The position numbers and the translations under genes are program-made. Below are positions 44,835-62,602 of a stretch of DNA of 64,000 bases, piece after piece (within the stretch, counting starts at the first letter, position 1; the number at the start of each line of letters is the position of its first letter). Source of the DNA: Flavobacteriales bacterium (GTDB lineage: Bacteria; Bacteroidota; Bacteroidia; Flavobacteriales_D; UBA2798). The notes under the pieces are model-generated. The model saw only the letters and a program-made list of their open reading frames with translations, made no database searches and had not been told where the DNA came from. The DNA is taken from positions 6,232-70,231 of the forward strand of contig DATGXI010000034.1 of NCBI GenBank assembly GCA_035299065.1. The letters run 5' to 3'.

Positions 44835-45635
44835 ATGCAAAGACCTGGTCCCTTTAATGTAGAAACTATACTTAATCAATTTGTGACAGAAATTGGGGGA
44901 GAACTTGTTAGTACCCTTATTACAGATACTAAGGGGCAACCAAATGCAGACTACGCTTTTAAAAAAAAGAACGTTATTGCAGAGCTTAAATGTTTTCAGA
45001 AAGATTTGTTTAATGGACAAAATGATCAAGAAAGATTAAATGCTTTAGTTGAAAAATGGACTGAGCGTGGTTTATATACTGATCAAACTCTTAATATGCT
45101 TTTTAATGGCGAACTACCAGTTGAGTTTAAGGCAGACTTGATACAAGACGCTAGAAAATCAATTGACAATGTCATTCGAAAGGCTAATCGACAAATAAGA
45201 GAGACAAAAAAAATACTAAAGATGAAGGATGCTATGGGACTAGTATTACTTTGCAATGACGGAAACTATTTTTTGCGCAACGAACATTATTTTGGTCTAA
45301 TTTGCAATTTAATGGCAAATAAGTATATGCAATCCGACATTGATGGTATTCTCTATTTTACAATAAATCAAGTTTCTCGTTCCCCCGAAGATGAATTTGA
45401 TCACAACGTTTGGCTTCCTGCATATAGGAGTGACGACAGCAGCCTAGGTGATTTTGTAAATGAAATGGGGGTAGCATTTATGGACGAATTTTATCCTAAA
45501 CTAACCGGTAGTCCTTTATCACATAAATTTATGACTGACAATCCAGAGGAAGGCATAAAAAAAATAAGTAGCTTAACTTATTTACCAAAGGCAATAGCAT
45601 ATAAAAAAGAAAAACAAATTGATTTTTTTGACTGA
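44835..45635 (+). CDS. hypothetical protein, possible PD-(D/E)XK nuclease fold
   Basis: 266 aa. The candidate D...E-x-K signature (NADYAF-x6-IAELKCF) near the N-terminus is a motif-level inference only. Confidence 0.45.
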   Translation: MQRPGPFNVETILNQFVTEIGGELVSTLITDTKGQPNADYAFKKKNVIAELKCFQKDLFNGQNDQERLNALVEKWTERGLYTDQTLNMLFNGELPVEFKADLIQDARKSIDNVIRKANRQIRETKKILKMKDAMGLVLLCNDGNYFLRNEHYFGLICNLMANKYMQSDIDGILYFTINQVSRSPEDEFDHNVWLPAYRSDDSSLGDFVNEMGVAFMDEFYPKLTGSPLSHKFMTDNPEEGIKKISSLTYLPKAIAYKKEKQIDFFD

Positions 45636-46575
45636 CCAAGAACTCATAGAGATTTACAATCTCGCTTATAAAGAAGAATTTGACCATCATTTTGAGATTG
45701 TCAATTCCTTTTATGAACCAGCCCGAGATAAAAAGTACGCTATTGAACTTGGAATAGGAATAATAGGCCTGGTTCTTTCATTTAGAAATGGTTCGGAATT
45801 GGAAGTTGAGATTGCAAATTTATTCGAACATGTTCACAAGCTAGGTGGATCTGTTGCAGATTGCATTAGGGAAATACCGAATTCCATTAATAGCCACAAA
45901 TTTGTTGCTGAAGAATGGCATAAAACTAATAAAAAAGAAATTTCAACAGAATTCAAGAAATTTCTTGGTATTCCATATGCTATAAAACAGATCCATGTTA
46001 AAGGAGTGATGCGTATGGGCTCAGTTTTTGAAAGATTAAATTCTCTTGAAGATATCTCTAAAGAACTTGGACGAAAAATAGCTTTGATTGATTTATTTTC
46101 GAAGCTTAAAGACAAATACGAAAAATTAAATGGTGAAATAACACCAAAGCAGATTCAAACTTTGCCAATACAATATGAACCTTTACTTGAACTTAAATCA
46201 TTGCTTGAAAAGAATGACGTAGATGCATTTTTTACAATCATTCAAAGCTTCTTTGCCGGCTTGTCTTACAATATGAAAGTTACTGAAGGTTATTTTCAAA
46301 GCCATATACATATGTTACTAAAGCTGCTTCATTTTAACATTGAATCAGAAATAGACACTAACAAAGGTCGCATCGATTCAGTTATTGAAACTGGTTCATT
46401 CGTTCATATTGTTGAATTTAAATTAAATAGTAGTCGAATTGCATTAGAACAGATTGAAAAAAAAGAATATTATCAAAGATACCTAAACTCAAAAAAGAAA
46501 ATCATAATGATTGGGGTCGGTGTGGATGCTGAGAAAAAAAACATCATTGATTGGAAAGTGAAAAACTATAACTAA
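45619..46575 (+). CDS. protein with C-terminal PD-(D/E)XK nuclease domain of the PDDEXK_9/DUF1703 type
   Basis: 318 aa. GRIDSVIE...HIVEFKLN...ALEQIEKKEYYQRY...IMIGVGVD matches the pattern seen in Bacteroides AAA-ATPase-like/PDDEXK_9 proteins. The N-terminal half has no recognised domain. Confidence 0.6.
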   Translation: MIFLTDQELIEIYNLAYKEEFDHHFEIVNSFYEPARDKKYAIELGIGIIGLVLSFRNGSELEVEIANLFEHVHKLGGSVADCIREIPNSINSHKFVAEEWHKTNKKEISTEFKKFLGIPYAIKQIHVKGVMRMGSVFERLNSLEDISKELGRKIALIDLFSKLKDKYEKLNGEITPKQIQTLPIQYEPLLELKSLLEKNDVDAFFTIIQSFFAGLSYNMKVTEGYFQSHIHMLLKLLHFNIESEIDTNKGRIDSVIETGSFVHIVEFKLNSSRIALEQIEKKEYYQRYLNSKKKIIMIGVGVDAEKKNIIDWKVKNYN

Positions 46576-47195
46576 ATATAATTAACAATAATTTCTCCGA
46601 TTTTGGTACTCCGGTATCGAACATTTCCCTCTCCTCCAAAGTTAATATTGTACACTTTGATAATAGCTAAAAATCCCGCATTTAATAAACTTGTTTTTAT
46701 ATCTGGGTCAAGCATATTATCTCTATAATTTTTTAAGTGAGTTAAATCTTTATAGTATACTTTATTTATGCCAATAGAAATTCTTTGATATGTGTCAAAA
46801 TCAATCTCACCGAGAACAAATCCCCTAAATATTTTTCCAATCACGCTGCTCTTTTCAATTTGATCAGTTTGGCCGAGTAAAAATAAAACATTTTCTCCTA
46901 TTCGTCCCAGCTCATTTTTTGCATCTTTTTCGGCAATAAATTTTAACCGCTCACCTTCCGCAATATCTTTAAGTTCAAACAAGAATTTTTCTATTTTTTT
47001 TAGATAGAAATAGTCATTGATTTTTTGAAATGCTGAAATTGACTTAAACACCAAACCAAAAACTGGCAGTTCTTTAAAGATCCCGTCAGTTAAATTTTCG
47101 TCTAGGATTGCCTCTGATACCTCACCAGTAATTTCCTTTATTTCATCTGAAGCAATGCTTCGAATTATTTCTTCACTCGATTTTTTGTCCTTCAT
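46572..47195 (-). CDS. hypothetical protein (last gene of the NACHT operon)
   Basis: 207 aa, 2-bp gap from the upstream gene. No recognisable domain. Confidence 0.5.
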   Translation of the reverse strand: MKDKKSSEEIIRSIASDEIKEITGEVSEAILDENLTDGIFKELPVFGLVFKSISAFQKINDYFYLKKIEKFLFELKDIAEGERLKFIAEKDAKNELGRIGENVLFLLGQTDQIEKSSVIGKIFRGFVLGEIDFDTYQRISIGINKVYYKDLTHLKNYRDNMLDPDIKTSLLNAGFLAIIKVYNINFGGEGNVRYRSTKIGEIIVNYI

Positions 47196-47197
47196 TA

Positions 47198-48508
47198 TTA
47201 TTTGCCTTTCTTTTGAGCTAATTCCAATAATTTATCCAACTTAATATTGGTCATGTAAAATTCCTTGCTTGGGTAGTTCTTAATACTTTTTTCAAGGTTC
47301 CAGTTATCGTCTATAATTTCCTTTAAATTTGAAATAAATTTTTGTAGCATATTAAATTCCTCCGTTTCCAAATCCAAATAATCTAATTCTGCATCGTAAT
47401 GAATCAGACATTCCAAGTAATAGAAATTAGCCCTAGATTCTTGGTCCGCTCGTAATGGATTTAAATCGAACCATGCGCTCCTAAAAGCATTCATAGAATG
47501 TGTTCCACTTCCGAGGGAAGAGGGACTAAGCTGGATTTTGAGGCTGTACTTTGAACCAACTATTTTAATATATGGATGTTGCAGTTCTTCAAAATGAATT
47601 TCTATTGTTGAATCGGGTGGAAGACATATTGGACCTTTATACGTCATATTCATATATTCTTTAAAGCCATGAACCCAATTCAATTTTGGAAATAAGTCAT
47701 CACCAATAATCTTTAAATCAGAAAATCCAAGCTTACACATCGGTACTGGCTTTTCTGTAACTAGCGATCCTGAAGCCATCCGATTATAACTCTTTGAAAT
47801 CCCAATGTGCCAACTGTTTGGAAAATAGCGCCAAAAAGTTTTCAGTAATGCCCAGATCGTGGTCTGTAACATGAATGGTTGGGTCTTATCATTAAGCCTT
47901 AAGTTTTCGTCTATATCTTCCGGATCTAAACCTTGAAAAAACCAGCCTATTTCATACGAACTATGGGGAAAAGGCCTACCCACTACTCCAAGATTTTGCT
48001 TTTGAACCTCAAAGCCACTCACTATATCAATAGAAATTCCGGGATCATTGACATCTTTGAACATCCATTCCAATTGTGCATCATTCACAGGCCTCTTTCC
48101 ATGCATCGTTCTAATATAGTAAGTCCTTTCAAGGATGTGCCCACTATTCTCTTTAATATAAGAATGTGGTATTCCTTTTCTTCTTGGCACTTCTACAATC
48201 AGAAAATCTATGTCTCCCTCAATTAGTTGAACTTCAACTTCAATTCGAGGACTAATATTAGTATAGCAGATATTTTGAATTTTACCTTTTAAGCCATCCA
48301 GATCTCTAGCTAGTTTCTCGTCAAAGCTACCATCGTTATTAATCCCAAAAATAATTTTCCCGCCATGTCTATTTGCAAAAGCCAGAATACTACAAGCTAT
48401 ATCTCTACTAGCATCCTTATTTCCAAATAATCTAAATGACTTACACTCTCTAAAAACTGTTTCAAGCTCTTTAGATTGGGTTATTTTGTGAATTTCATCG
48501 ACTGTCAT
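47198..48508 (-). CDS. AlbA_2 (Schlafen-like, putative DNA-binding) domain protein with unknown C-terminal domain
   Basis: 436 aa. The N-terminal 140 aa fit AlbA_2 (ELETVFRECK...DIACSILAFANRHGGKIIFGINNDGS...FLIVEVPR). Confidence 0.65.
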   Translation of the reverse strand: MTVDEIHKITQSKELETVFRECKSFRLFGNKDASRDIACSILAFANRHGGKIIFGINNDGSFDEKLARDLDGLKGKIQNICYTNISPRIEVEVQLIEGDIDFLIVEVPRRKGIPHSYIKENSGHILERTYYIRTMHGKRPVNDAQLEWMFKDVNDPGISIDIVSGFEVQKQNLGVVGRPFPHSSYEIGWFFQGLDPEDIDENLRLNDKTQPFMLQTTIWALLKTFWRYFPNSWHIGISKSYNRMASGSLVTEKPVPMCKLGFSDLKIIGDDLFPKLNWVHGFKEYMNMTYKGPICLPPDSTIEIHFEELQHPYIKIVGSKYSLKIQLSPSSLGSGTHSMNAFRSAWFDLNPLRADQESRANFYYLECLIHYDAELDYLDLETEEFNMLQKFISNLKEIIDDNWNLEKSIKNYPSKEFYMTNIKLDKLLELAQKKGK

Positions 48509-48525
48509 AATTAATAATTTAAGTA

Positions 48526-51500
48526 CTAAAAACTCGATGCTGCCAACTTTCTTTTAGCTTCTTCAATAGTTTCTATTTTAGGCATTGATTCATAATATTT
48601 ATCTTCTATACCATCAATATGCTCTAAAATAAATCGAGATTTCGGATATTTATCTCTGTACTCAGATAAAAATCTATTAAGATCATCTTTAACAATCTTT
48701 AGATTTTGCTCGCTTTGAATTCCTATTTTATGATATGCTGAAAGTACACTCGAATTAAAGTAACCTTTATCCTCTGATTCTTCTACTTCATAACTTAATT
48801 TCAGAAGTTCAAAAAGACCTGGTAAAACTCTTATAGAAGTAACGTTGGACAAACTTCTATAATTAATTTCCTCTTTGTGAGATTTCCAATGTGAATTAAC
48901 CAAGTCGATTAATAGCTGAATACCAACTTCGTTATCAATAATTACTAAATGATAACATGCGTTGATTTTAAAACTAATATCATCCCTTCTTTTCTCTTCG
49001 TTAACTAAAAAGTCCTTTATAAATTCCTCTTCGTTAACCTCAGATAGTTTTTTGATTATTTCCCATATAGTACCCGAATCGCACTTCGAGATTATTCTCT
49101 TTAAATACTCTTTGTCTAATGTTTCTTCATAATAAAGGTTTATTAGTTCCCTTTTCTCATATTCCGACCAATTTTCGTTTTCGATTTTCGCCTCTAGGAC
49201 CGTGTAAAAATCATAAAGTCTATTTTTCAGAACGTATTGAAAATGGTTCTTAAATATTTCAAAAATTGTGATTCCTTGTTCTATATTATCCTTAATTCTC
49301 TGGTTCACCTTATCGTTATCAATAAGTTTTATAAGATGATCGAAATTCAAGTATTTATATTCTAGTATTATTGAATAACTTAGCATATTAAGGAGCACTT
49401 CTTCTGATACAATAAAATTGAGCTTGTAATGGAAATAAAAGAAATAATTTGCATAGTAATTAAAAGTGGTTGTATTCCCTTTTCTTCTCAAAGATGTTCT
49501 GAAATCAAACTTTGATAGCACTCTATTACACCAATTTTCAATCCACTGAACTTGGTTTTGATTTAGAACTAAAAAGTCATTGTGTATCAGAAGTTGTTCA
49601 AGTCGTCCGACACAATATCTTTCTACGTTTTCTCTGTCCACAAACCATAATTCAACCTTTTCCTTATCAATGGTTTTTTCTACAGAATCCTTTTTTAAGT
49701 AGAGCATATCTCTCAGCAACCATAGTACCGCACCATTGTACTTGTCTTCTAACTCAACAATTCTATTATTTATCTTTAAAATATCATATAATTCAGATTT
49801 AGTAAGTTCTTCCTTTTTAAAATCCTCGAATATCTCTATTGCTTGTGATGCCATTGAATCAATATTAAACAATAGTTCAAATTCTTGAATTGTTTGTTGC
49901 CTTCTTATTTCGTTATAGTCAACCTGTGGCAACTCTTCAAAAACCAAGTCAGTTTTACGAGATAAATAATTGCGAAACTCTTTAGTACTTACTTCCTTAG
50001 AATTATATAAATTTGTACTTATGACTTGCAAATCTGATTTTTCGATTTTTTTCTGGTTGTATAATTCGACAAATAAATCCAACGTATCTTTAAAAACAAA
50101 GCAACTTAGCAAATAAGATCTGTCCCTTTTATTTTCAGTTCGAAGAATTTGAGCTATGGCTTTTGAAATACTCTGCGTTTGAACGAAATAAGAAACCAGT
50201 AGTTCTTTTATATCAAAATCAAAACTTATTCCACCCGCGCTAAACCAAGAGAGACATGCGCTAAATACATTATCGTTTACATTTTCCGCTTCAATTGCAC
50301 TTTTGATTAACGTTCTTGCGCTTTCTCCTGAATCATAATGGTGCCTAAAATACTCTCCTTCGGAAGCATAATTAATTAGTTTTGTAATCGATGCGTCTGT
50401 CTTTACCGCCCCAATACACTCTTTTAAATTATAAATCTCATTCATTGAGGTTGATCCACCTCTTTCTTCCGAATCAGTTCTATATCTTAGATCACACCCG
50501 CTTATAATATAGTCTACGTACTTATCACTAAGTTCGTAACCTAGAATAAGATCATACATAGCAGTTCTTATATATTTATTCGCGCTCTTGCCAAATAACG
50601 AAAATATATGCTCTATTTCGCTTACTTCCAATAATCTTGAAATTGTTAATGCCTTTAATATCTCACTAACAATATTGACCCTTGAACGGCATTTATCCAA
50701 TAATTCGATTAGCCTTTTCTTTACAGAGCTACCATTATCTAAATCACGAAAATTAAAATTCCCTAAAACTCTAATAGCGTTTCTAAGAGTTATTTCACTT
50801 GGCTCATCAAGTAAATTCAACAAATATTCAACACAACCTTTACTATTTCCGAAACTTGTAAATTCATGCAAATTAAGTTTATACTCATTTATCCAAAACT
50901 CATTTTTTTGGTAATATGAAAATATTTCTTTAAAGATAACTTCCCGCTTTACAATGTCAAGTTTTTCACGTTCTACTTTTATAATGAGTTCTTTGTCATT
51001 CTTCATTAACCAAGTGATGAGATCATCATAATAAGTGCCATTTTTTATCCCTAGTAAAAATGTTATAGTATTCATCCAACTTGGAATTAGCTTTGTATGT
51101 CCAGGAGAATATGTAATTAGGGTAATTATTTCATCAAATCTGAGTTTGGAAAGATATCTTGCTGCCAAATATTCTTGAAATAATCGATGTTCAAATTTCC
51201 AAATCCCACGACTATTTTCAGATTTAGTGAAAAGCTTCGAATATTTGATTAAATCAATTTTTGAAGAATCATCAATCACTGATTCGAAATCAGAATTGGA
51301 AATCGCATTTTTTCCCATAATTTCCATTAGAACTGCTATTCTCTCCAATAAGGATAACGTTTGACTCTTCTTAAGCGTTATATTATCAACTGTAAGTACA
51401 TATTTCTTCTGGTCAAAAAACATATCCATCTGTATGAATTGATCGAATAAATCCGACTTATTAGAGGGCAGTTGCCCCTTCTCAGCGTATAAGCTCGCTA

Positions 51501-52668
51501 ACGTTGTTAGATGAAATGGGTTTACCGTTAACTCATACAGTTCTTTGTCTTCAATTTCTTTACAAAAGTTCTTATAGTCTATTTTATACCTGTTTTTCAA
51601 AAAGGCTTTAACACTAGACTCGTAAAGATTTAAATTTGCGATAACAAAGACCTTAAAAAGTTCATCAAAAAAACTTACATTATTTAATGAAGCGTGTTCA
51701 AAGTGATTGGTTCTACAGGACAAAACTACCTTTGTACTCTGATTTTTCTGAACGAATTGTTTAATCTTCCTCATTAAGCCAATAAAATCTGAAGGTTCCA
51801 CTTCATCTAGGCCATCCATAAAAACAATAAATTTTTCCTGGTCAATATTAATCCAATTCTTTGGCAATATCTCTTCAATCTGTTCGTTCTTATATGTTTT
51901 AAAATCCAACATTAATGGAAAATACCCTAACGACTTAAGTTTAATACAAGTCTCTTGTAATTCCGTAGATTTTCCTGTCCCTCCATTTCCAATAACAATA
52001 ATTCTTTGATGGTTTAGAATCGCTTTTAAACATGGGATTGTTTCAAATCCCTCTGTTTCTATCCGACTAGCAAATTCTACTAATACTCGGGGAATCTTAT
52101 CTTCTTCTTTATGTCTGATCTGATCTAAAAAAGTATAATCTGGAGCGCTATTATCCCCTTTAATTTCTGTAATTTGCTCACTTATGTCCTCAAGCATCAG
52201 ATTAATTCTCGTGCTAGCCTCTTTTAATCCTGGATTCGTAACCTTAGTAATTAATTGTTTGAATATTTTTATAAAGTCGGTTAACTCACCCTTAATATTT
52301 ACATCTATATTTTTCAATTCAATAAGATAAGGGCTTGTATGCAGAGTATGATCAAGTAGTCTAACTAAATCCTCATATTCGCTTTCATTGTTGAAATAAT
52401 TTTGAAATTGTTTGGCAAATTCATTAAACAAAAAGAGCCTGGAAAAAGCTTTACCCTTCTCTTGCTCATATTTTAAAACAGCATGAAAATAAACCGATAT
52501 AAATTCGTCTTTTAAATCAGCGGCTAAAAAGAGGTAACGATTTTTTTGAAAGAATCTAAACAAACTGTATTGCTTGTTCATTTCTTTTTTAGCGCTCTGC
52601 CAAAAAAAGAAAATGACCTTACCAGCAAATGGTTTAATCCAACTACTTAAATTGAATCCAGTTGACAT
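48526..52668 (-). CDS. NACHT/STAND P-loop NTPase (bacterial NLR-like), 1380 aa
   Basis: Walker A IIVIGNGGTGKST, Walker B FIVFMDGLDEV, then a SCRTNHF sensor-like segment. About 220-aa unknown N-terminal domain and about 950-aa helical-repeat C-terminus. Confidence 0.8.
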   Translation of the reverse strand: MSTGFNLSSWIKPFAGKVIFFFWQSAKKEMNKQYSLFRFFQKNRYLFLAADLKDEFISVYFHAVLKYEQEKGKAFSRLFLFNEFAKQFQNYFNNESEYEDLVRLLDHTLHTSPYLIELKNIDVNIKGELTDFIKIFKQLITKVTNPGLKEASTRINLMLEDISEQITEIKGDNSAPDYTFLDQIRHKEEDKIPRVLVEFASRIETEGFETIPCLKAILNHQRIIVIGNGGTGKSTELQETCIKLKSLGYFPLMLDFKTYKNEQIEEILPKNWINIDQEKFIVFMDGLDEVEPSDFIGLMRKIKQFVQKNQSTKVVLSCRTNHFEHASLNNVSFFDELFKVFVIANLNLYESSVKAFLKNRYKIDYKNFCKEIEDKELYELTVNPFHLTTLASLYAEKGQLPSNKSDLFDQFIQMDMFFDQKKYVLTVDNITLKKSQTLSLLERIAVLMEIMGKNAISNSDFESVIDDSSKIDLIKYSKLFTKSENSRGIWKFEHRLFQEYLAARYLSKLRFDEIITLITYSPGHTKLIPSWMNTITFLLGIKNGTYYDDLITWLMKNDKELIIKVEREKLDIVKREVIFKEIFSYYQKNEFWINEYKLNLHEFTSFGNSKGCVEYLLNLLDEPSEITLRNAIRVLGNFNFRDLDNGSSVKKRLIELLDKCRSRVNIVSEILKALTISRLLEVSEIEHIFSLFGKSANKYIRTAMYDLILGYELSDKYVDYIISGCDLRYRTDSEERGGSTSMNEIYNLKECIGAVKTDASITKLINYASEGEYFRHHYDSGESARTLIKSAIEAENVNDNVFSACLSWFSAGGISFDFDIKELLVSYFVQTQSISKAIAQILRTENKRDRSYLLSCFVFKDTLDLFVELYNQKKIEKSDLQVISTNLYNSKEVSTKEFRNYLSRKTDLVFEELPQVDYNEIRRQQTIQEFELLFNIDSMASQAIEIFEDFKKEELTKSELYDILKINNRIVELEDKYNGAVLWLLRDMLYLKKDSVEKTIDKEKVELWFVDRENVERYCVGRLEQLLIHNDFLVLNQNQVQWIENWCNRVLSKFDFRTSLRRKGNTTTFNYYANYFFYFHYKLNFIVSEEVLLNMLSYSIILEYKYLNFDHLIKLIDNDKVNQRIKDNIEQGITIFEIFKNHFQYVLKNRLYDFYTVLEAKIENENWSEYEKRELINLYYEETLDKEYLKRIISKCDSGTIWEIIKKLSEVNEEEFIKDFLVNEEKRRDDISFKINACYHLVIIDNEVGIQLLIDLVNSHWKSHKEEINYRSLSNVTSIRVLPGLFELLKLSYEVEESEDKGYFNSSVLSAYHKIGIQSEQNLKIVKDDLNRFLSEYRDKYPKSRFILEHIDGIEDKYYESMPKIETIEEAKRKLAASSF

Positions 52669-52728
52669 TTTTTAATATTAAATTTTTTGTTTTATAATAA
52701 GGTACGAAATGTCTTAGAGCAAGAATAT

Positions 52729-53445
52729 TTATGAAGGAGTATGATTATACCATTCAATTAATTCTCGCAATCTTTTAACTAAAATATGTACAGTCGTGCT
52801 TGGATTGGCTTCTAGTGGACTGTTATCCATTTTTATGTGTTCGGAATAAAGCTTTTCAGCACGATTAATCGCATCAGATTCACTTCCCATCTCTTGTAAT
52901 GGCTTAAAAATCTCTAAACCCGCATGTTCATATTCAAAAGTATCATATCCTTGATATGCCCGAATTTCAGTCGTTAACATATTATAAATATCTTGACGCG
53001 CAATTGGCGTATTAGCGGGCACGCTAATAAAATGCAATAAAAGCCACAATTCAAAAACCTCATTACTATATGCAACTTTTATTTTTTGTTTCTTAGCTAG
53101 TGTAAAAGCGTCCACAAACCTGGCCGTATTTCCTTGGGATTTTTGGGCATCATCTTTATCAAAAACTGACCAAACCTCGTCTACGTGCTTACCTGCTTCC
53201 TCATATAGTTTTGTTCTTTCAATTACGGTTTGCTCAACAACGCCCTTATAGTTTCTTCCCGTTCCGACTGCTCTAAGAAATACAGTTTTATCTGGAAATT
53301 CCTTTACGAATCCATTAAAATAGAATGGCTCTGACTTTTGGTCTTCACAAACAATTAAAAATAGATGATCATACCTTTTTGGCCTAACAGGTCTATCGTC
53401 TTTATCCTTTAATTCTTTTTTATGGACTATTCCTTTGACCGCCAT
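52729..53445 (-). CDS. RloB-like (Toprim-like) protein
   Basis: 238 aa. FLIVCEDQKSEPFYF, VWSVFDKDD and AYSNEVFELWLLLHF are the hallmark RloB (PF13707-type) motifs. Confidence 0.75.
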   Translation of the reverse strand: MAVKGIVHKKELKDKDDRPVRPKRYDHLFLIVCEDQKSEPFYFNGFVKEFPDKTVFLRAVGTGRNYKGVVEQTVIERTKLYEEAGKHVDEVWSVFDKDDAQKSQGNTARFVDAFTLAKKQKIKVAYSNEVFELWLLLHFISVPANTPIARQDIYNMLTTEIRAYQGYDTFEYEHAGLEIFKPLQEMGSESDAINRAEKLYSEHIKMDNSPLEANPSTTVHILVKRLRELIEWYNHTPS

Positions 53446-54782
53446 TTAGCTGAATGAATAAAATTTTTAAAATCTCCAAGAACAGGAATAGCACCATATC
53501 GACCTTCAATATATCTCTTTTCTTTATCTGTATCAGGTCTCTCTTTTTCGGATTTGAATTCTCCATTTTTTTCTTCAAAATAGATAAAGTCTGACAAAGT
53601 ATAAAGCTCTGTGCTTTCCCATTTATTTTTTTCAGCGAAACACACTTGGTCTCTTCTTAACTGAGAATAACTTAAAAGATTTGTATCATGAGTCGCAAAA
53701 ATCAGTTGTGCCCCATTTGGATTGCTTTCTTTCCTTAAAAATAATTCAATTGTATTTAACGTCATTATTGGGTGCATTGCAGCTTCTATTTCATCAATTA
53801 TAAGAACCCCACCATTTGCAAGAGCCCATAAAACGGGGCCACTTAGTTTAAATGCTTTTTGGGTTCCTGCAGATTCTCTTTCATTAAAATCCCAACTATG
53901 CAATTCATTTGTAGGAGATCCATCGGATTTATATGTTTGATGAATTGCATGTACAATATAACTCTTGCTGCCTTTTAATTTTTGAGCTAATTGAGTCTTT
54001 AAATTTTCCGGCATACTATGAGGCAACTCTGATTCCTCAAAATCCTTTGGTGTAATTTCAACATCATGTAAACCTAGTCCTAAGTTTGATAAATATTTCC
54101 GAATAGTTTCCTTGTATTCGTTTAATTCAGATAGGGATGCCGTTCTAATATCATCATCTGTATTTAAACCATCAATCATTACAAATAACTTAAACCACTG
54201 CATTATTTTCTTAGCCTCCTCAACATTTAAAATATCACAGGTGGATAGGAAAAGTGCGTTGACTCGCGTTGCCTCAATAGCTGCGTCAATTAATTTCTTT
54301 GACCCGACATATCCAGAGCTAACATCAATAACATTCCCTTCTCTTTCAAAGAGACTTACTTCTCTTCCAGCAGATTTTCTAAATAGCCATTCCTTTTGGA
54401 CTTCTGTTGAGTTAAATTCAAGACCGTATCTATATCTATTTTCTTCAACAACAAACGATATTTCAAAAGTTGTTGGCTTATTAGACCATCCATCTCTTAA
54501 TAAGAAAGGATCATAAGGAAGTTTTGTTACAGACGATGTTCTAGCTGATATGTGAACAAGCATATCAAGAAGGCTCATTGATCTCAAAATATTAGATTTA
54601 CCTCCTCCATTAGGTCCATAAAGTGAAATTGCATTCAGACCTTTATATTTACTTTTGGAAATTATGTTTTGAGGATAGTCCTTTTGTTTAGGCGCTGGAA
54701 CCAAACTCAAAATTTGCTCTTCCCCAATCGATCTATAATTTGAAACTCTAAATTCAAGTAACATAGCTTTGCGAATTTTCAC
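53427..54782 (-). CDS. AAA_21/AAA_15-type ABC-like ATPase (partner of RloB)
   Basis: FRVSNYRSI, Walker A YGPNGGGKSN, Walker B LIIDEIEAAMHP, and FATHDTNLL. The track start is GTG; the ATG at 54764 (MLLEFRV) is the more likely start. 19-bp overlap with the RloB gene. Confidence 0.8.
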   Translation of the reverse strand: MKIRKAMLLEFRVSNYRSIGEEQILSLVPAPKQKDYPQNIISKSKYKGLNAISLYGPNGGGKSNILRSMSLLDMLVHISARTSSVTKLPYDPFLLRDGWSNKPTTFEISFVVEENRYRYGLEFNSTEVQKEWLFRKSAGREVSLFEREGNVIDVSSGYVGSKKLIDAAIEATRVNALFLSTCDILNVEEAKKIMQWFKLFVMIDGLNTDDDIRTASLSELNEYKETIRKYLSNLGLGLHDVEITPKDFEESELPHSMPENLKTQLAQKLKGSKSYIVHAIHQTYKSDGSPTNELHSWDFNERESAGTQKAFKLSGPVLWALANGGVLIIDEIEAAMHPIMTLNTIELFLRKESNPNGAQLIFATHDTNLLSYSQLRRDQVCFAEKNKWESTELYTLSDFIYFEEKNGEFKSEKERPDTDKEKRYIEGRYGAIPVLGDFKNFIHSAKWRSKE

Positions 54783-54904
54783 AAATATATGACACTTGGA
54801 TCAATAAAAAGCGTCCAACTATGCCTTTTTTGCTATTTTTCCGTAAAATAGTGGCATTTAGTCTAGATAATGTGCAATAAATTATTTTATTGATTATCAG
54901 ATAA

Positions 54905-55267
54905 TTAAAAAATCGAAGAACTCATTTTAATTAGTTCTTTATAAATCTCATTCGCTATTGGTTCTAGTGCCCTATTTGAGTCCTTTATATTAATCTTAGC
55001 GGCTTTTCTGGTTGCATTGTGATAGTATTCGCCAATACGTTCCTCCCCCGCTTTCTCCTCTATCCCTAGAATGGCGAATATGGTTTCGCTGAGATGTAAG
55101 CAGTAGTGCAAAGCATCAAAATCTAAAGCTTCCAGGCCATAAATAAGCCTGTTATTAATTAAATCATCTTTGATTAGGGCTATTAAAAGCTTTTCCTGAG
55201 TGATTTTTGGCTTTTTTGATTTCATATCACAACACTTTAGTGCTACAAAAATAAAATAAAGTGGCAT
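54905..55267 (-). CDS. hypothetical protein
   Basis: 120-aa ORF. The likely true start is the ATG at 55225 (MKSKKPK...), because the first 14 codons coincide with a promoter-like inverted repeat. Confidence 0.4.
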   Translation of the reverse strand: MPLYFIFVALKCCDMKSKKPKITQEKLLIALIKDDLINNRLIYGLEALDFDALHYCLHLSETIFAILGIEEKAGEERIGEYYHNATRKAAKINIKDSNRALEPIANEIYKELIKMSSSIF

Positions 55268-55370
55268 AAAATAACACTAAAGTGAATTAATATTAGCTTT
55301 TAGTTGTCTTTTAATACACTTTTCATTGATTTTAAGTTCTTTAGATATGCTTAAATTGCCACTTTATTTA
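55253..55370. promoter_or_regulatory. divergent promoter/operator region with inverted copies of TGCCACTTTATTT(TA)T(T/G)TTTG(T/A)AGCACT
   Basis: The minus-strand copy reads from 55266 leftward and the + strand copy from 55357 rightward. The minus copy contains TATTTTTG (TAnnTTTG). A third partial copy (TGCCACTATTTTA) lies on the minus strand at 54845-54856. Confidence 0.5.
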
Positions 55371-55387: not shown

Positions 55388-55600
55388 ATGGTCGAAAAGA
55401 TGGTATATAATCGAATTAAAGCAGTTTTAGCTGAAAAGGATAAGACAAATATCTGGTTAGCGGATAAATTGGGTAAGAACAAAACAACTGTATCTAAATG
55501 GTGTACCAATGATGTTCAACCAACCATTGAAACATTATTTGAAGTTGCTAAAGTTCTTGATGTAGATGTCCGTGAGTTACTGGTACCAACAAAAAAATAA
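55388..55600 (+). CDS. XRE/Cro-C1-family helix-turn-helix transcriptional regulator
   Basis: 70 aa. NRIKAVLAEKDKTNIWLADKLGKNKTTVSKWCTN is a typical HTH_3 pattern. Confidence 0.8.
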   Translation: MVEKMVYNRIKAVLAEKDKTNIWLADKLGKNKTTVSKWCTNDVQPTIETLFEVAKVLDVDVRELLVPTKK

Positions 55601-56529: not shown

Positions 56530-57279
56530 ATGTCTAGTTTCACAGAAACAGGGCACGCAAAAAACGTTGCCAATTTTGAAGATCTCATTTCGTTCTGTAC
56601 CGGTTATGGTGCTACCTACAACCCGGTGAACGTTAACATTAAAATTCCTGCATTAAACTCAAAGTACACGGCTTGTGTGAACGCCATACTTGCGGTTAAG
56701 GTGGCCAAAACGGCTTTTGACAATTCAACCAACTCGCGTGAGCTTGTATTTGCTTCGCTCAAGAAACTCTCCACACGCGTTGTAAACGCTCTGGAGGCTA
56801 CCACGGCTGCAAAGGTAACCGTTGATGATGCAAAGACTGTAAACCGCAAAATTCAGGGCAAGCGTGCCTCCAAGGTACCCGAAGAACCATCCGATGGTGG
56901 TGGCACGGGTGCAGAGGCTCCCGTTAAGACCATATCGGTGTCACAGCAGAGTTATGACAGCCTGATTGATCATTTCATCAAGCTGATACAGATCGTGAGC
57001 ACTGAGCCCCTTTATTTGCCCAACGAGACGGATTTAAAGGTGGTTACTTTAAATGCTTTGCTGGTGAGTTTAAAGGCTGCCAACACTTCGGTGATTGGTA
57101 CCACTACTTCTTACAGCAACAGCCGTATTACGCGTGACAGTGCTTTGTATGATGTTACAACGGGTATGGTTGACCTGGCTTTTGAGGTAAAGGCTTACGT
57201 GAAGAGTTTGTACGGGGCAGGCAGTATGCAATACAAACAGGTAAGCGGGTTAAAATTTACAAAGATCAAACATTCGTAA
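56530..57279 (+). CDS. hypothetical protein (GC content like the core genome)
   Basis: 249 aa, Ala/Thr/Val-rich, followed by a strong intrinsic terminator. Confidence 0.55.
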   Translation: MSSFTETGHAKNVANFEDLISFCTGYGATYNPVNVNIKIPALNSKYTACVNAILAVKVAKTAFDNSTNSRELVFASLKKLSTRVVNALEATTAAKVTVDDAKTVNRKIQGKRASKVPEEPSDGGGTGAEAPVKTISVSQQSYDSLIDHFIKLIQIVSTEPLYLPNETDLKVVTLNALLVSLKAANTSVIGTTTSYSNSRITRDSALYDVTTGMVDLAFEVKAYVKSLYGAGSMQYKQVSGLKFTKIKHS

Positions 57280-57288
57280 TGTGTTTGA

Positions 57289-57316
57289 GGGGTTTCTTAA
57301 GGAACCCCTTTTTTTT
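57289..57316 (+). terminator. rho-independent terminator
   Basis: GGGGTTTC-TTAA-GGAACCCC (8-bp stem including one G-U pair) followed by T8. Confidence 0.8.
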
Positions 57317-57354
57317 GTCGTGTTGTGAACGATTAAAAAAAGAAAGCTGGCATC

Positions 57355-57599
57355 CTGTATTAGTGTTTTCCTGCCAACAGGTAGAAATCTCGTATCCGCA
57401 TTTAGTGTTCCTGCAACTGTGCGGAGTATTCTTGCGACTAACAAAAGAAAGTTAGCGTCCCTACTTAGTGTTCTTGCGTCTGCACTTAGAAACCTTGCGA
57501 CCTGAGTTAGTGTTCTTACAACTACGCGGAGTGTTTTCGTCTCCGCATTTAGAATTCTCTTAACTGCACTTAGTGTTCTCTGACCAATTGACAGTTTTT
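57355..57599. repeat. 21-bp-periodic iteron-like array, copy 1 (about 11 units, consensus about CTGCACTTAGTGTTCTTGCGA)
   Basis: TTAG(T/A) cores at 57360, 57402, 57465, 57486, 57507, 57549 and 57570. All spacings are multiples of 21. Confidence 0.85.
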
Positions 57600-57647
57600 A
57601 CTCATCAGTAAAATATACTCAAACAAATAGATGTTCTGTTCATTATA

Positions 57648-58550
57648 TCAATTTGGACCATCATAATTTGGGCCTCTATATTTTACTTTAATTTTAGAGT
57701 GCTCAATTCGCTTACGCCAGTAATCTTTGGAGGTCACTTTTGCCTCTTTTACGATTTGCAAATTTACCTCTCTCCAAATGACCCTATTTCTAAATCTTTC
57801 TGCTCTTTTTCGGTTGAACTCAATTACAGATTCGGGGCAATAAAAAGTATGGACTTTGTCTTTCTTTTCGTTTTCAAACACAAAGAAACAATAAGCATAT
57901 GGCGTTGTGTTCGAATGAATAATACGTATTTCTGAATATTGGTTAAAAACCTCTTTTTGTATTTGTATATATTTTTCATCATGAAGAATAACTTCTACTC
58001 CATCCACATGAGGAGATAGCACCATATTTTGATCTATAAAAGGTAAAGTATATACGGTCTTTAAATCGGTATCTTTAATTTCGAATTTTCTTTTAAACGT
58101 TTCTATTACTTCCTTTCCTTCGACCGTTTCTTCATCAAAAGTGTATTTGCCAACGACTTTATCCGTTGAATCGTACATTTTCCCTCTTTTAAATTTAAGA
58201 GAAGATATTGCCTTAATAAAAGAGTCCTTGGATTCCTTTTCCAATTGCTTTTTATCCTTAAAGTCGATTTTAAAAAAGGGTGGATCAAATAGAGAAAAGA
58301 GCAATAATGGTTCACCATTATGAATTATGGGCACGAAAAAACAACGAATATCCCATTTAATTGAAGAGTTATATTCCCATCTGATTTTACTCTTAATAAA
58401 ATTAAAACTTGCTCTTTTACCAGACTTCCAATGATGAGTCATGAGCTTAAATTGCTCATCCCATATTTTATGATCTTCTAAATTTTTGTTAATGGCAGCA
58501 CCTATAATTTCGCGATTAAAAACAAGTTTCATACGGTCTTTTTCTTTCAA
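57648..58550 (-). CDS. hypothetical protein
   Basis: 300 aa, AT-rich, Lys/Glu-rich, no recognisable domain. Lies in a roughly 1-kb segment that is absent from the second copy of the surrounding repeat. Confidence 0.5.
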   Translation of the reverse strand: MKEKDRMKLVFNREIIGAAINKNLEDHKIWDEQFKLMTHHWKSGKRASFNFIKSKIRWEYNSSIKWDIRCFFVPIIHNGEPLLLFSLFDPPFFKIDFKDKKQLEKESKDSFIKAISSLKFKRGKMYDSTDKVVGKYTFDEETVEGKEVIETFKRKFEIKDTDLKTVYTLPFIDQNMVLSPHVDGVEVILHDEKYIQIQKEVFNQYSEIRIIHSNTTPYAYCFFVFENEKKDKVHTFYCPESVIEFNRKRAERFRNRVIWREVNLQIVKEAKVTSKDYWRKRIEHSKIKVKYRGPNYDGPN

Positions 58551-58675
58551 ATATAAAAAAACATTTCACTTACAAACTAATATATTCCAAATCCTTTCGA
58601 ACTTAACATAACTTACTGACCATGACGTGTTAGTTTGGCACATATTTTCTCTAACCGACCTGTGTATCATTCTTG

Positions 58676-58961
58676 GGCAGCGTCATTTTTCAGAGAGGAC
58701 AAGAGGAACTTCCCGCCACCGCACGTCAAACACATTAAAGGGTTTTTAGTTTTAAAATTAGCTGGCATCTAAAAACCCTTTAATAAGTTTGCCTTCCCTC
58801 CCTGTACGGGCACCTTGAATAGGGTGTTATCGTATTTGCCGACTCTTTTTTTTAAAACGCTAAATTTTTGATTTGTGCTTTTAAGGGCAGGGTTCTTTAG
58901 TTGGACACGTTCTTTAACGGGGGAAAGGGAAAAGGTTGGCCCAAAGGGGTGTGCGCCCTCT
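58676..58961 (+). repeat. conserved non-coding module, copy 1 (possible structured RNA or regulatory element)
   Basis: Near-identical to 62037-62373 apart from a 50-bp indel. Contains a perfect 15-bp hairpin (58735-58749 / 58769-58783) and ends directly at an attC-like site. Confidence 0.8.
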
Positions 58962-59096
58962 GCATAACTTGGCGGTGGCCGCTATTGCGGGGCAGCAACA
59001 ATTGTTAAGGTAAAAGCATTATATTAGCGTAACGTTTTGGTGAAGGGTTCGGGGCATTTATTCCGCAACAGCAAGCCCACCGCCCGAACGTTATGC
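58962..59096 (+). repeat. attC-like site 0 (135 bp)
   Basis: GCATAAC-TTGGCGGTGGCC ... GCCCACCGCCCGAAC-GTTATGC. The terminal 7-mers are perfectly complementary. Confidence 0.6.
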
Positions 59097-60062: not shown

Positions 60063-60081
60063 ATAAACTTGTTTTGCCAGC

Positions 60082-60273
60082 CCCTAACTTGGCGGTGGCC
60101 GCTATTGCCGGGAACAGGGTCAGTTCAGGGCGCGTTTTTGTACTTTTAAGCCGGTCACGTTAAACAAAAAACGTTTTACCGGTAGACATTCATAATTGTT
60201 TTTTGTTTAACTTGCTTTTGAAAGTAACGTTTCCAAGGTCGGCAACAGCATGCCCACCGCCCGAACGTTAGCC
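60082..60273 (+). repeat. attC-like site 2 (192 bp)
   Basis: CCCTAAC-TTGGCGGTGGCC ... inner hairpin GTTAAACAAAAAAC/GTTTTTTGTTTAAC ... GCCCACCGCCCGAAC-GTTAGCC. Confidence 0.6.
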
Positions 60274-60323
60274 GTAATTATTGCTACCGATGGTTTAATA
60301 AGCACTAAAAAATTAACGATTCA

Positions 60324-61688: not shown

Positions 61689-61745
61689 AAGGTTTAATCC
61701 ATCTCGAAAATAATTTCTCCAACTGTAAGTAGTATACTAGCAAAC

Positions 61746-61990
61746 TGAGTTGGTGTTTTCCTGCCATGAATTGGAAATCTCCTATCCTGATTTAGTATTG
61801 TTGCATCCTCACTTAGAAATCTTCCACTTGTCAAAAGAAAGTTCGCGTCCGTACTTAGTGTTCTTGGATCCGCAAAAGGAATTCCCGCGACCTGACTTAG
61901 TGTTCTTGCACCTGCACGGAGTATTCTCGTCTCCGCATTTAGAATTCTCTTAACTGCACTTAGTGTTCTCTGACCAATTGGCAGTTTTTT
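61746..61990. repeat. 21-bp-periodic iteron-like array, copy 2
   Basis: Colinear with 57355-57599. The last roughly 50 bp are identical (CGTCTCCGCATTTAGAATTCTCTTAACTGCACTTAGTGTTCTCTGACCAATTG). Confidence 0.85.
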
Positions 61991-62036
61991 GTTATCTGAT
62001 CACCAATACGTGTTAATCACCAGGCGTGTTATTTTT

Positions 62037-62373
62037 GGCAGCGTCTTTTTTCAGAGAGGAAAGTAGGAACTTCCCGCCACCGCGCGTCAAACACATTTAA
62101 GGGTTTTTTTTGTGTTGAAATAAGCTGGCATCTAAAACCCTTTAATAAGTTTGCCTTCCCTCCCTTTACAGGCACCTTGAATAGGGTGTTATCGCATTTG
62201 CCGACCTCTTTTTTTATTCGGGGAATAATTTGTCTTTTAGCCGTCCTCATGAATGCAAAGCATTTAAAACGCTAAATTTTTGTTTTGCGCTTTTAAGGGC
62301 GGGGTTCTTCATTTGGACACATGCTTTATCGGGGGAAAGGGAAAAGGTTGGCCCAAAGAGGTGTGCGCCCTCT
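62037..62373 (+). repeat. conserved non-coding module, copy 2
   Basis: Colinear with 58676-58961, with an extra segment at 62216-62265. Abuts attC-like site 3. Confidence 0.8.
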
Positions 62374-62602
62374 GCATAACTTGGCGGTAGCCGCAACCTG
62401 CCTGCCATAGCGCAAGCCAGTGCAAGGGCAGGCAGGGTGCTAGGGGCAAGGTCAGGTCAGGACACGTTTTTGTATTATACTGTCTCCGTTAAACAAAAAA
62501 CGTTTTATCGGCAGACAATCATAATTGTTTTTGTTTAACTTTACTTCGGTCGGTACGGTTTCAAAATTTGGCACCTGCAAGCCCACCGCCCGAACGTTAG
62601 GT
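62374..62602 (+). repeat. attC-like site 3 (229 bp)
   Basis: GCATAAC-TTGGCGGTAGCC, an extra palindrome CCTGCCTGCC...GGCAGGCAGG, the inner hairpin at 62488-62539, then GCCCACCGCCCGAAC-GTTAGGT. Confidence 0.6.

Follow-up and report, generated by a model that had tools for sequence, protein, structure and literature searches.

The non-coding block that is repeated in the window (the whole stretch of 64,000 nucleotides from a Flavobacteriales bacterium that we analysed) is, with good support, the local form of a conserved, strand-specific, non-coding element belonging to an integron-like platform of Bacteroidota. We put at roughly 85% the probability that it is a member of a conserved family of hairpins specific to cassette arrays. 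Its core, a hairpin here called H, recurs with compensating base changes in many Bacteroidota cassette arrays, and for this reason the block is probably, as far as sequence can tell, a functional signal made of folded DNA (less likely of RNA) and not a gene, a promoter or junk.

The platform itself is made of a recombinase gene, the attI site next to it and an array of cassettes, of which the following parts are needed here:
41426-42538, + strand: Xer-type tyrosine recombinase (Pfam Phage_integrase and SAM_4).
42581-42628, + strand: attI, a palindrome ATGGGCGAAATTTTGC / GCAAAACTTCGCCCAT followed by AAACAAG|TTATGC, with the crossover within GTTA at 42622-42625.
58962-59096, + strand: attC-like site 1, GCATAAC...GTTATGC, the first of the array.
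62374-62602, + strand: attC-like site 4, 3' of module copy 2.

IntI integrases carry an IntI-specific additional domain around patch III, according to the account of Messier & Roy 2001 given in PMC9668308. This insertion is absent from the recombinase of the window, which scores 178 against TIGR02249, below the cut-off of 265 and with the profile matched in two pieces, and in which the 25 residues 261-286 span the 67 residues 178-245 of VchIntIA. It has an extra N-terminal region of about 90 aa, homology to Xer and IntI starting only at residue ~90. The window and a related locus with an identical recombinase (L081) share the same sequence through ...AAACAAGTTA and are unrelated beyond, where L081 has an ORF cassette; judging from this natural cassette-insertion polymorphism at attI, the platform is recombinationally active. 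The locus has what is expected of an integron, that is, an attI that receives cassettes and an array of ORFs with attC sites, and in related loci the arrays also lie downstream of the recombinase. Every cassette ends in its own GCATAAC...GTTAnnn site (the ends being GTTATGC at 59090-59096 in site 1 and GTTAGGT at 62596-62602 in site 4), five of the attC-like sites have CCCACCGCCCGAACGTTA in common (0.02 expected by chance), and the sites of the array fold as bulged hairpins. The bulged bases of attC sites in these systems are found in the arm opposite to that of canonical attC. Cassette ORFs start 9-20 nt 3' of each attC and need transcription from upstream.

The repeated block, or module, is present in this setting in three copies, the third of them rearranged:
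58673-58961, + strand: module copy 1, a repeat with copy 2 and colinear with positions 8190-8500 of locus L094; its sub-parts are u (58673-58726, with a CCACCGCAC box at 58716), the hairpin H1 (58727-58791), f (58792-58847), B (58848-58880) and C (58881-58961).
62034-62373, + strand: module copy 2, recovered as a repeat with copy 1, by arm search and by a covariance-model (CM) match; the arms of H2 are at 62088-62107 and 62134-62153, and an additional ~50 nt (~62217-62262) lie directly 5' of B2 (~62263-62292).
42806-42915, + strand: hairpin part of copy 3 (A3), a CM match, flanked by CGCACG and a CCAACGCAC box (42900).
42622-42764, - strand: inverted distal part of copy 3, made of the reverse complements of C3 (42622-42731) and B (42732-42764).

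Copies 1 and 2 align over 58673-58982 and 62034-62394 with 79% identity across 362 columns, the ~50-nt indel included, and with 91-93% identity in the ungapped blocks; the preliminary description was right about their colinearity and the indel, and somewhat generous in calling them near-identical. Both end, as it had reported, directly at the GCATAAC core of an attC-like site (58962-58968 and 62374-62380), and we agree that no credible ORF lies inside them, since the only ones present encode 20-73 aa, begin at non-ATG or non-conserved starts and show mostly non-synonymous differences between copies. The repeat is real, but the unit of 290-340 nt first proposed is only part of a larger one of ~660 nt, whose left half is an array of 21-nt units treated below. 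A simple ORF-less cassette, one of the options considered at the outset, does not describe it: the duplication does not extend from one core to the next, and the flanking ORFs and attC interiors differ between the copies. Nor is there support for the suggested pairing of its 5' part (the CCACCGC box) with GCGGTGGC of the downstream attC, the box being a flank motif of the whole hairpin family.

The diverged third copy seen next to the recombinase holds for the hairpin part, which is on the + strand; the copy as a whole is a mosaic in which B and C are inverted and abut attI. Its inverted part begins right at the attI crossover, contains a perfect 33/33-nt inverted match to the B of copy 1 (42732-42764 on the - strand, 58848-58880 on the + strand) and shares the terminal sequence TGCGCCyTyTGCATAACTT. 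This arrangement indicates that part of the module was moved in a rearrangement linked to attI. Two simple routes to it were tried and rejected, as neither a single inversion between attI and an attC inverse core nor an inversion between the two B copies reproduces the orientation of the hairpin part. The physical tie of the repeated non-coding block to attC-like sites and recombinase is clear in the window, whose 64 kb contain three copies of H only, all in the platform or the array. When metagenomes were searched for further module copies, the B probe gave 0 matches and an attC-arm probe found related arrays without the module copy of the window, one of which (L083) has an H hairpin; in exact-protein look-ups for more copies, several cassette proteins had no record.

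H is an imperfect palindrome, ~60-100 nt long, that forms the core of the module. Its outer stem (5-11 bp) can covary freely and is followed by a fixed core duplex (5'-GC-ACA-TT / 5'-AA-AGA-GC), after which come the inner stem (9-15 bp) and a loop of 12-45 nt; CC(A/C)CGCAC boxes and a pyrimidine tract flank the hairpin. In MFE folds and in the alignment, the core duplex contains a symmetric 3x3 internal loop (A.A, C-G, A.A), and bulges are absent. The perfect 15-bp hairpin noticed at first lies in copy 1, within arms of 23 nt (58727-58749 / 58769-58791), and arms exist in all three window copies: those of copy 2 are of 20 nt with 85% complementarity, and those of copy 3 (42818-42837 / 42875-42894) differ in sequence and keep complementarity. 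In L094 the 15-bp inner stem has likewise been rewritten in sequence and is still perfectly complementary. The conserved loop element CTGGCATC is a feature of the window copies, as had been claimed: all 4 of its occurrences in the 64-kb window are inside modules and on the + strand, where 1.3 would be expected, and it is kept in the three window copies but not in L094. The stem base reads ..AAC / GTT.. in the window copies and L094, and the closing sequences of the other 16 of the 20 aligned hairpins differ (AAGC/GCTT, TGGC/GCCA or CAGC/GCTG, for example).

The argument for structural selection, which had been drawn from three local copies, extends to more than 25 homologues in other genomes with many compensatory changes. 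In the CM alignment 95.9% of cells are paired (63% in shuffles), with double changes in 12 of 13 pairs, and in an alignment of 20 stem sequences that takes in the window copies 91.8% are paired (59.9% in shuffles), with double changes in 15 of 17 pairs, both pairing percentages being somewhat inflated because the stem alignments were anchored or fitted on structure. The covariation score of the 20-sequence alignment is 0.81 against 0.19; none of 500 shuffles reaches 0.81, and slid controls stay at or below 0.25. G-U pairs are rare in the stems (1/340 cells of the 20-sequence alignment, 6/579 MFE pairs), and one-sided changes are virtually absent from that alignment. A sub-family of H has the same core duplex with the opposite end closed by the loop, something that makes sense only for an intrastrand hairpin.

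We built a CM from 12 hairpins, all of them from genomes other than that of the window. In the whole-window search it recovers copy 3 with 30 bits (E=3.7e-7), and within 57000-63000 copies 1 and 2 rank first (58714-58811, 10.8 bits, E=0.04) and second (62075-62173, 10.1 bits, E=0.07). The scores of copies 1 and 2 with the family CM are weak (about 10 bits). Over 90 related loci the CM gives 24 matches, every one on the + (cassette) strand. In the recombinase-centred loci L001-L080, 23 out of 23 matches are downstream of the recombinase, a side that makes up 33% of the flanking bases, and the 24th is that of L083, a related cassette array on a contig without recombinase. H occupies two types of position, either 35-190 nt 3' of an attI or attC crossover, as in copy 3, or 60-220 nt 5' of the first core of an attC, as in copies 1 and 2, and both contexts are also found in IMG/VR contigs. 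The whole module is colinear in L094 (u-H-f-B-C-attC), where B is about 70% conserved and a neighbouring conserved gene is 80% identical. We found no sequence relation between H and either attI or the arms of attC, and no homology junctions at H itself, hence no sign of H being itself recombined. In the window H occurs in 2 of about 6 array intervals; since only some cassettes have it, not every attC reaction can depend on it.

Upstream of the module lie the array that completes the larger repeat, a conserved gene and, in copy 1, an insertion:
57341-57612, no strand assigned: Lrep1, a strict 21-nt periodic array of 13 units, unit about AGTGTTCTTGCGTCTGCACTT.
61731-62002, no strand assigned: Lrep2, a second 21-nt array, which runs directly into module copy 2.
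56530-57318, + strand: GeneQ, 249 aa and all-alpha, the conserved upstream neighbour of the array, with its intrinsic terminator (57287-57310, then a T-run).
57648-58555, - strand: an inserted ORF of 294 aa (57648-58532) with a Bacteroidetes-type promoter box TATATTTG at 58555.

The two arrays match over 57347-57606 and 61737-61996 with 79% identity, and at lags 21/42/63 they show an autocorrelation of 0.47-0.52, where the highest value among 1000 shuffles is 0.38; the period of 21 bp corresponds to two helical turns. A coding array was considered and rejected: a minus-strand frame is open in both copies, but it has no start codon and the differences are mostly amino-acid-changing. In copy 1 the array is split from the module by the insertion of ~1 kb with the 294-aa ORF, which is found neither in copy 2 nor in L092 and L100 and is present on a Logan contig (L090). 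We also discarded this ORF as a mobilising gene (a group II intron, or an IS1111/IS110 end with bridge RNA and attC as target), given that it has no Pfam or NCBIfam match, is missing in copy 2 and in relatives and is preceded by a promoter of its own. GeneQ has 4043 homologues, and its confident AlphaFold model (pLDDT 83.6) retrieved only generic helical bundles in a Foldseek search of the PDB (E >= 0.29), without a match to a DNA-binding fold. The order GeneQ-terminator-array(-H) is kept in L092, L100, L098 and L060, L098 being without H, and H is preceded by the 21-bp array and GeneQ in the window and in three other lineages. A gene for an XRE-type regulator (HTH, 55388-55600), with a homologue in L066, is adjacent.

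Several other explanations can be proposed for such a block. H could be a cis-acting RNA of cassette transcripts, either a hairpin for processing or stability or a signal for antitermination or insulation by which transcription copes with the attC hairpins. It would be transcribed together with the cassettes, starting at their own promoters or on the recombinase side. Its orientation is always that of the cassette ORFs, its covariation is strong, it is intergenic, directly 3' of stop codons or 5' of a promoter-plus-ORF, its CA-rich flanks and repeated CCAACGCAC boxes lie in regions expected to be single-stranded, and a cis-regulatory DUF805 RNA sits 130 nt 3' of one H. We nonetheless consider an RNA possible but rather doubtful, as we do the structured RNA or sRNA of the preliminary description. 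The scarcity of G-U pairs and of one-sided changes is at odds with it. No Rfam family covers H: the window scan gave no matches, the modules in E-value mode gave nothing relevant, and in seven loci with >10 H elements the only matches were DUF805 and Flavo-1, outside H. Folding of the whole module is ordinary compared with shuffles (z -0.7 / -1.4), and the array as RNA folds no better than shuffles (array and module z-scores ranging from -0.1 to -1.4). Also, the window block lies behind a strong, canonical terminator and is itself bounded by no promoter or terminator, no consensus promoter was found upstream of its hairpin, and in several loci a consensus promoter is found downstream of H, which is then not part of that mRNA. 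H does not have the makeup of an intrinsic terminator, most members being followed by C-rich or mixed tracts, and canonical terminators with T-runs exist in the same loci, after GeneQ. The near absence of G-U pairs and one-sided changes, the ordinary folding of the array, the terminator upstream, the lack of a consensus promoter before H and the helical period of 21 bp are together our reasons, all of them indirect, to prefer DNA over RNA. Promoters in Bacteroidetes follow the consensus -33 TTG / -7 TAnnTTTG, the -33 element being 19-21 nt upstream, and TAAGTTTG, which copies 1 and 2 carry in the 3' arm (58784 / 62146), fits the -7 part; with the need of cassette ORFs for upstream transcription, and with B identical at 33/33 positions in two otherwise diverged copies and partly conserved in L094, one could see in TAAGTTTG or in B an internal, Pc-like promoter for the cassettes beyond the abutted attC. 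This early suggestion now looks improbable: TAAGTTTG is the sole box of its type and is missing from copy 3 and L094, no -33 TTG stands at the correct spacing from it, B gives 7/8 matches only and in copy 3 is inverted, pointing into the recombinase gene, sigma-70-type scans return fewer sites than in shuffles, and a promoter would leave the covarying hairpin unexplained.

It is also conceivable that H is a selfish palindromic repeat of the REP or MITE type, spreading among cassettes with no function for the platform, and that the window copies are mere insertions and duplications. A palindrome with conserved flank boxes resembles a repeated target, and H does occur in only some cassettes and in several copies per array in some loci (three in L003). 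Such an origin is hard to reconcile with its low copy number, its restriction to the cassette side and to one strand, the position next to attI fixed in at least 7 unrelated genomes and a conservation across orders by structure-preserving substitutions, unlike the near-identity of active MITEs; with no cognate transposase seen, we hold it to be very unlikely. We are equally sceptical of an origin-like region, with iterons, stem-loop and unwinding element, serving an excised element or cassette circle in replication, transfer or complementary-strand priming. Thirteen direct repeats in exact helical phase, followed by a strand-specific hairpin whose loop is conserved in the window copies and by an AT-rich block, would suit this role, and the array-plus-hairpin order is repeated in L066, L092 and L100. 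On the other hand, genes for a Rep, relaxase or HUH protein are missing in the vicinity, GeneQ encodes an all-alpha bundle without a DNA-binding fold match, the block and GeneQ are absent from 72,556 plasmids and 50,697 phage records (DNA and protein), and the two parts come apart, H being often without any array and L098 having the array alone.

Our preferred reading is that H acts as a strand-specific, folded single-stranded DNA accessory site near attI and attC, a mechanism that we advance tentatively, on comparative grounds, and that falls short of even odds. Among the options of the preliminary description, "recombination enhancer" is the nearest to it. H would be read as a single-stranded DNA hairpin of the cassette (+) strand, as attC sites are. 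It would work in cis, at no more than ~200 nt from the recombination cores, in an accessory or architectural role, and could help to fold or present the adjacent attC or attI, or be bound by the recombinase or a host factor. In the same nucleoprotein region, the array of 21-bp units and the AT-rich B might then provide double-stranded DNA for proteins to bind or bend. As for the copies, the two inside the array (1 and 2) would derive from a block duplication, and copy 3 from a rearrangement at attI. Against this reading stand the occurrence of H in some cassettes only, the absence from most members of the family of the AAC...GTT cores and extrahelical bases by which integrases recognise attC, and the missing sequence relations and homology junctions of H. 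A bolder version, which we regard as unlikely, would make H another class of folded single-stranded DNA site, next to attC, in a distinct integron-like branch. The integrase of this branch would be the Xer-type recombinase without the IntI-specific domain, the fixed core and the CCAACGCAC boxes could let the recombinase or a partner recognise or organise its single-stranded substrate, and H, the 21-bp array and the widespread GeneQ might define a new architecture of gene-cassette capture in Bacteroidota.

For the recombination of folded single-stranded DNA, integrons serve as the model system. Bacteroidota have been regarded as integron-poor or integron-less (10.1101/2024.07.02.601686), and our full-text searches of the literature retrieved no description of the H element or of Xer-type integron platforms in this phylum. 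In the window locus and its relatives, an active attI and arrays of attC type depend on a recombinase that does not have the domain held necessary for integron recombination, and these loci have in addition a covarying hairpin, specific to the cassette strand, that is described in no database. Should H be an accessory DNA site, it opens a direct way to study how an Xer-like enzyme deals with hairpin substrates and gives a marker to find such platforms in metagenomes; should it be an RNA, it would represent a novel class of cis-regulators, acting on cassette expression in a phylum without Shine-Dalgarno-driven initiation.

Among known elements, H resembles attC in form. Like it, H is an imperfect palindrome in which structure is conserved over sequence, with an internal unpaired spacer between outer and inner stems, stems of Watson-Crick pairs only, a strand fixed relative to the cassette ORFs and a distribution confined to cassette arrays. 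H differs from attC in that RYYYAAC/GTTRRRY cores, which in attC form the stem base and have the crossover at G|TT, are missing in most members, the extrahelical bases that set strand choice in attC are absent, and there are no homology breakpoints at it; it does not occur once per cassette, each cassette having a separate bona fide attC-like site, and, unlike attC sites, it has flank boxes and a core duplex conserved in sequence (GC-ACA-TT / AA-AGA-GC). Hairpin-plus-iteron origins (rolling-circle dso and sso, CRESS-virus origins, plasmid single-strand promoters or initiation sites) also combine a strand-specific hairpin, functional only as single-stranded DNA, with phased direct repeats and an AT-rich segment; here there is no initiator or relaxase gene, the block is absent from plasmid and phage collections, and array and hairpin also occur separately. 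With REP/BIME elements H shares short palindromes 3' of stop codons in fixed orientation, but it is of low copy, limited to integron-like arrays and conserved across orders with compensatory change. Delta-attI-type cassettes (PMC12901181), which are attI-derived sequences inside arrays, have one element both beside attI and inside the array, as seen with H; H, in contrast, is on the cassette side of the attI crossover and is a structured hairpin, not a truncated attI. The accessory sites of tyrosine recombinases, finally, include the lambda-type arm and bending-protein sites and the integrase-binding repeats DR1 and DR2 of attI1. The boxes of H are unlike the repeats left of attI, and known arm sites are double-stranded DNA with no covarying hairpin at their centre; what H shares with accessory sites is the layout, with direct boxes of 9-10 nt and tracts rich in AT at up to ~200 bp from a core site, on a platform whose recombinase has an extra N-terminal region of ~90 aa.

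The module, a repeated non-coding block, is 79% identical between its first two copies over 362 columns (58673-58982 versus 62034-62394, a ~50-nt indel included) and 91-93% identical in their ungapped blocks, which confirms the repeat of the preliminary description. Other elements of that description have held up: both copies terminate at GCATAAC (58962-68; 62374-80), ORFs within the module are not conserved between copies, and the hairpin at its core (H) is found in all three copies, with differing arms that keep their complementarity. The four occurrences of the loop element CTGGCATC in the window all fall within modules. GCATAAC is the first core of attC-like sites ending GTTATGC / GTTAGGT. 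Five sites in 58.9-64 kb have CCCACCGCCCGAACGTTA in common (0.02 expected), TAACTTGGCGGTGGCCGC-like left arms occur in five attC-like sites, the attC-like sites of the array are predicted to fold as long bulged hairpins, and + strand ORFs begin 9-20 nt past each of them. In their folded forms, the sites at 58962-59096 and 60081-60274 carry their unpaired or bulged bases in the 3' arm (coding (+) strand), which appears to be the reverse of canonical attC such as VCR and attC-aadA7; if truly reversed, these sites would be predicted to differ from canonical attC in strand choice.

H is part of a wider family. In a Mariniphaga locus (L066), a 21-nt array is followed by a hairpin of copy-3 architecture and then by attC. 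The pattern outer stem - ACA - inner stem ... inner' - NNN - outer' gave 43 matches versus 5 in shuffled sequence, and the true matches have flanks and loop motifs in common. A covariance model (CM) trained on 12 instances, none from the window, found copy 3 in the whole window (30 bits, E=3.7e-7) and, with filters off, placed copy 1 (10.8 bits) and copy 2 (10.1 bits) at the top of its ranking for 57-63 kb. Over 90 loci it returned 24 matches, 24/24 on the + strand; in recombinase-centred loci 23/23 lie downstream of the recombinase, where only 33% of flanking bases are found. Two IMG/VR contigs carry H in the same contexts.

The structural selection proposed earlier is strongly supported by covariation. 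In the CM alignment 95.9% of cells are paired versus 63% in shuffles, with double changes in 12 of 13 pairs, and in a 20-sequence stem alignment that takes in the window copies, L092 and L094, 91.8% versus 59.9%, with double changes in 15 of 17 pairs; these pairing percentages are somewhat optimistic because the stem alignments are anchored or fitted on structure. The 20-sequence covariation score is 0.81 (reached by 0/500 shuffles) versus 0.19, slid controls staying at or below 0.25. L094, a relative with 80% identity in the neighbouring conserved gene, has the whole module colinear (u-H-f-B-C-attC, the letters being sub-parts around H); its 15-bp inner stem has changed at several positions without losing perfect pairing, B is ~70% conserved, and the loop differs from the window copies. 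Finally, an attI-adjoining sub-family keeps the core duplex GC-ACA-TT / AA-AGA-GC with the loop closing the opposite end, a permutation that favours a hairpin within one strand over a pair of duplex half-sites. Its members carry that duplex with AGA on the 5' side and ACA on the 3' side.

Permuted H elements
L020 11210-11299, 170-190 nt past the recombinase stop
L061 10992-11081, same distance
L056 10178-10265, same distance
L064 11007-11096, same distance
L068 7123-7211, ~750 nt past the stop, immediately following an inserted cassette with its attC

H occupies two positions, type 1 lying 35-190 nt past the attI/attC crossover, upstream of a promoter and an ORF, and type 2 directly behind an ORF or 21-nt array, 60-220 nt ahead of the first attC core. 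Once a cassette is excised as a circle, either position falls within ~200 nt of attC.

Examples by locus (a/b/c, separate elements in one locus)
Type 1: L066a, L027, L012, L023, L044, L060a, L003a/b, L020, L061, L056b, L064b, L068b, window copy 3
Type 2: L056a, L060b, L064a, L066b, L083, L003c, L068a, L008, L094, window copies 1 and 2

Related arrays also hold two Rfam matches, a DUF805 RNA 130 nt downstream of H (L060 13490-13559, 78.9 bits) and a Flavo-1 RNA on the opposite strand (L027 9673-9750 (-), 60.4 bits), as well as an ORF-less cassette of ~43-nt periodic GAAGCGTGAAAATTGGA-type repeats between two attC sites in Flavobacterium limicola (L002 11920-12270).

The ORF at 41426-42538 is a tyrosine recombinase that scores under the cut-off of the integron-integrase profile, which it matches in two pieces, and has 25 residues at the IntI-specific insertion region versus 67 in VchIntIA; judged by these two features it is Xer-like. 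Its N-terminus carries ~90 additional residues. A Logan contig with an identical recombinase protein (L081) has identical DNA through ...CCCATAAACAAGTTA (window 42625) and is unrelated beyond, where it carries an ORF cassette, so that the two samples present a natural insertion polymorphism at attI 42581-42628. The attI beside the recombinase thus works despite the missing IntI-specific domain. Homologues of up to 49% identity (Flavobacterium, Lutibacter, Saprospiraceae, Bacteroidales and others) share this layout, with an attI-like ACAAGTTAGG after the stop codon and attC-type arrays on the same strand; many of their contigs end just 3' of the recombinase gene. The window itself belongs to a Flavobacteriales MAG. 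At three loci, heptamer tandem repeats (7-nt, 14-nt period) stand immediately 5' of recombinase genes (L040 772-960; L052 3454-3565 and 2560-2670; L063 9260-9357).

The module repeat extends to the left (57347-57606 versus 61737-61996, 79% identity) as an array of 13 units in strict 21-nt periodicity, with zero indels; its autocorrelation is 0.47-0.56 at lags 21, 42 and 63, and 1000 shuffles reach 0.38 at most. A 21-bp period is two helical turns, a spacing usual in duplex-DNA arrays that bind proteins. The array directly adjoins the module in copy 2 and is separated from it in copy 1 by a ~1 kb insertion, present there only, with a 294-aa ORF (57648-58555 on the - strand, including its own Bacteroidetes-type promoter box TATATTTG) for which a family search gave zero match. 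Strict 21-nt arrays, 5-20 units long, are found repeatedly close to these recombinases and 3' of GeneQ, a conserved gene upstream of the array; the period is constant in every lineage, the unit sequence varies, and some units hold palindromes (AGCTAGCT, GAGACGTCTC). The autocorrelation scan of the window also flagged a 48-nt periodicity at 31711-31801.

21-nt arrays
Window: 57341-57612; 61731-62002
Other loci: L017 7195-7420; L049 130-260; L059 9084-9300; L064 8686-8790; L066 17446-17690; L079 3828-3960; L092 1285-1565; L098 10830-11250

GeneQ (56530-57279, 249 aa) has 4043 homologues at 58-88% identity across Bacteroidota, with zero annotation and zero Pfam domain among them; its predicted fold is an all-alpha double bundle, for which fold comparison gave no informative match, and it was not found in plasmid and phage collections. 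Its homologues are often on very short contigs, as one would expect of a gene beside repeats. L092/L091/L093, L100 and L098 repeat the arrangement GeneQ - terminator - 21-nt array, and in L060 the array is upstream of GeneQ instead; with the exception of L098, each of these loci then has H. An XRE-type HTH gene comes after the attI-proximal H in L066 and L027. The window HTH (55388-55600) is 56% identical to it, and in the window a low-GC island (43048-55300; GC 0.29-0.35, flanks 0.41-0.49) splits copy 3 from this gene. These arrangements point to recombinase - attI - H - HTH - X - GeneQ - terminator - 21-nt array - H - attC - cassettes as the probable ancestral order.

Defence-like genes of the island
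45619-46575, PDDEXK_9
47198-48508, Schlafen/AlbA_2
48526-52668, STAND NTPase
52729-54782, AAA_21 and RloB

Copy 3 is a mosaic. Its hairpin part (42806-42915), near the recombinase, is in + orientation, and its distal part is inverted and begins exactly at attI; rc(B) (42732-42764) matches 58848-58880 at 33/33 positions, and of rc(C) only the terminal TGCGCCyTyTGCATAACTT is common with the other copies. The left edge of B is the position of all breakpoints, the copy-2 indel included. A single inversion was considered as the origin of copy 3, and the observed arrangement could not be derived from one. The perfect 33-nt inverted repeat (42732-42764 (-) / 58848-58880 (+)) flanks ~16 kb comprising the island, HTH, GeneQ, array and inserted ORF, and could support inversion of this segment. 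The Logan contig L082 terminates within the repeat.

As to whether H acts as DNA or RNA, the structured RNA first suggested found no backing in Rfam, where H matches no family. The folding energies of module and array are unremarkable; H stems are Watson-Crick only (one G-U in 340 cells and zero one-sided changes in the stem alignment; G-U in 6/579 MFE pairs of H folds); a canonical terminator lies upstream of the window block, and ahead of H no consensus promoter was found. All this speaks against an RNA gene, and we consider a cis-acting RNA element doubtful. A T-run is usually missing after H, and true terminators in the same loci have one. The Pc-like promoter also put forward fares worse, since neither copy 3 nor L094 retains the sole TAnnTTTG box, making a promoter block improbable. 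We give similarly little credence to H as a selfish palindrome, and hold an origin-like region to be quite unlikely. Taken with the 21-bp helical phasing, the Rfam result, ordinary energies, stem composition, upstream terminator and lack of a conserved promoter lead us to favour H as a putative strand-specific folded-DNA element, cis-acting near attI/attC. H would fold in one DNA strand and serve as an accessory or architectural site in cis, the 21-nt array and the AT-rich B possibly forming the duplex parts of the same region.

H was not found in plasmid or phage collections, nor any description of it in the literature; we class it as an integron-associated folded site, with a considerable chance that it represents a separate, as yet undescribed branch of cassette-capture systems. 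What makes the system of interest is an attI insertion polymorphism beside a recombinase without the IntI-specific domain, and a recombinase-attI-array layout kept on one strand across Bacteroidota relatives. Among known elements, H functions most like an attC-type folded site, yet three of the four defining attC tests are negative: hallmarks of attC are missing from H, and H is missing from some cassettes. The platform, in turn, functions like that of an integron, and differs from it in a recombinase for which the IntI-domain test is negative.
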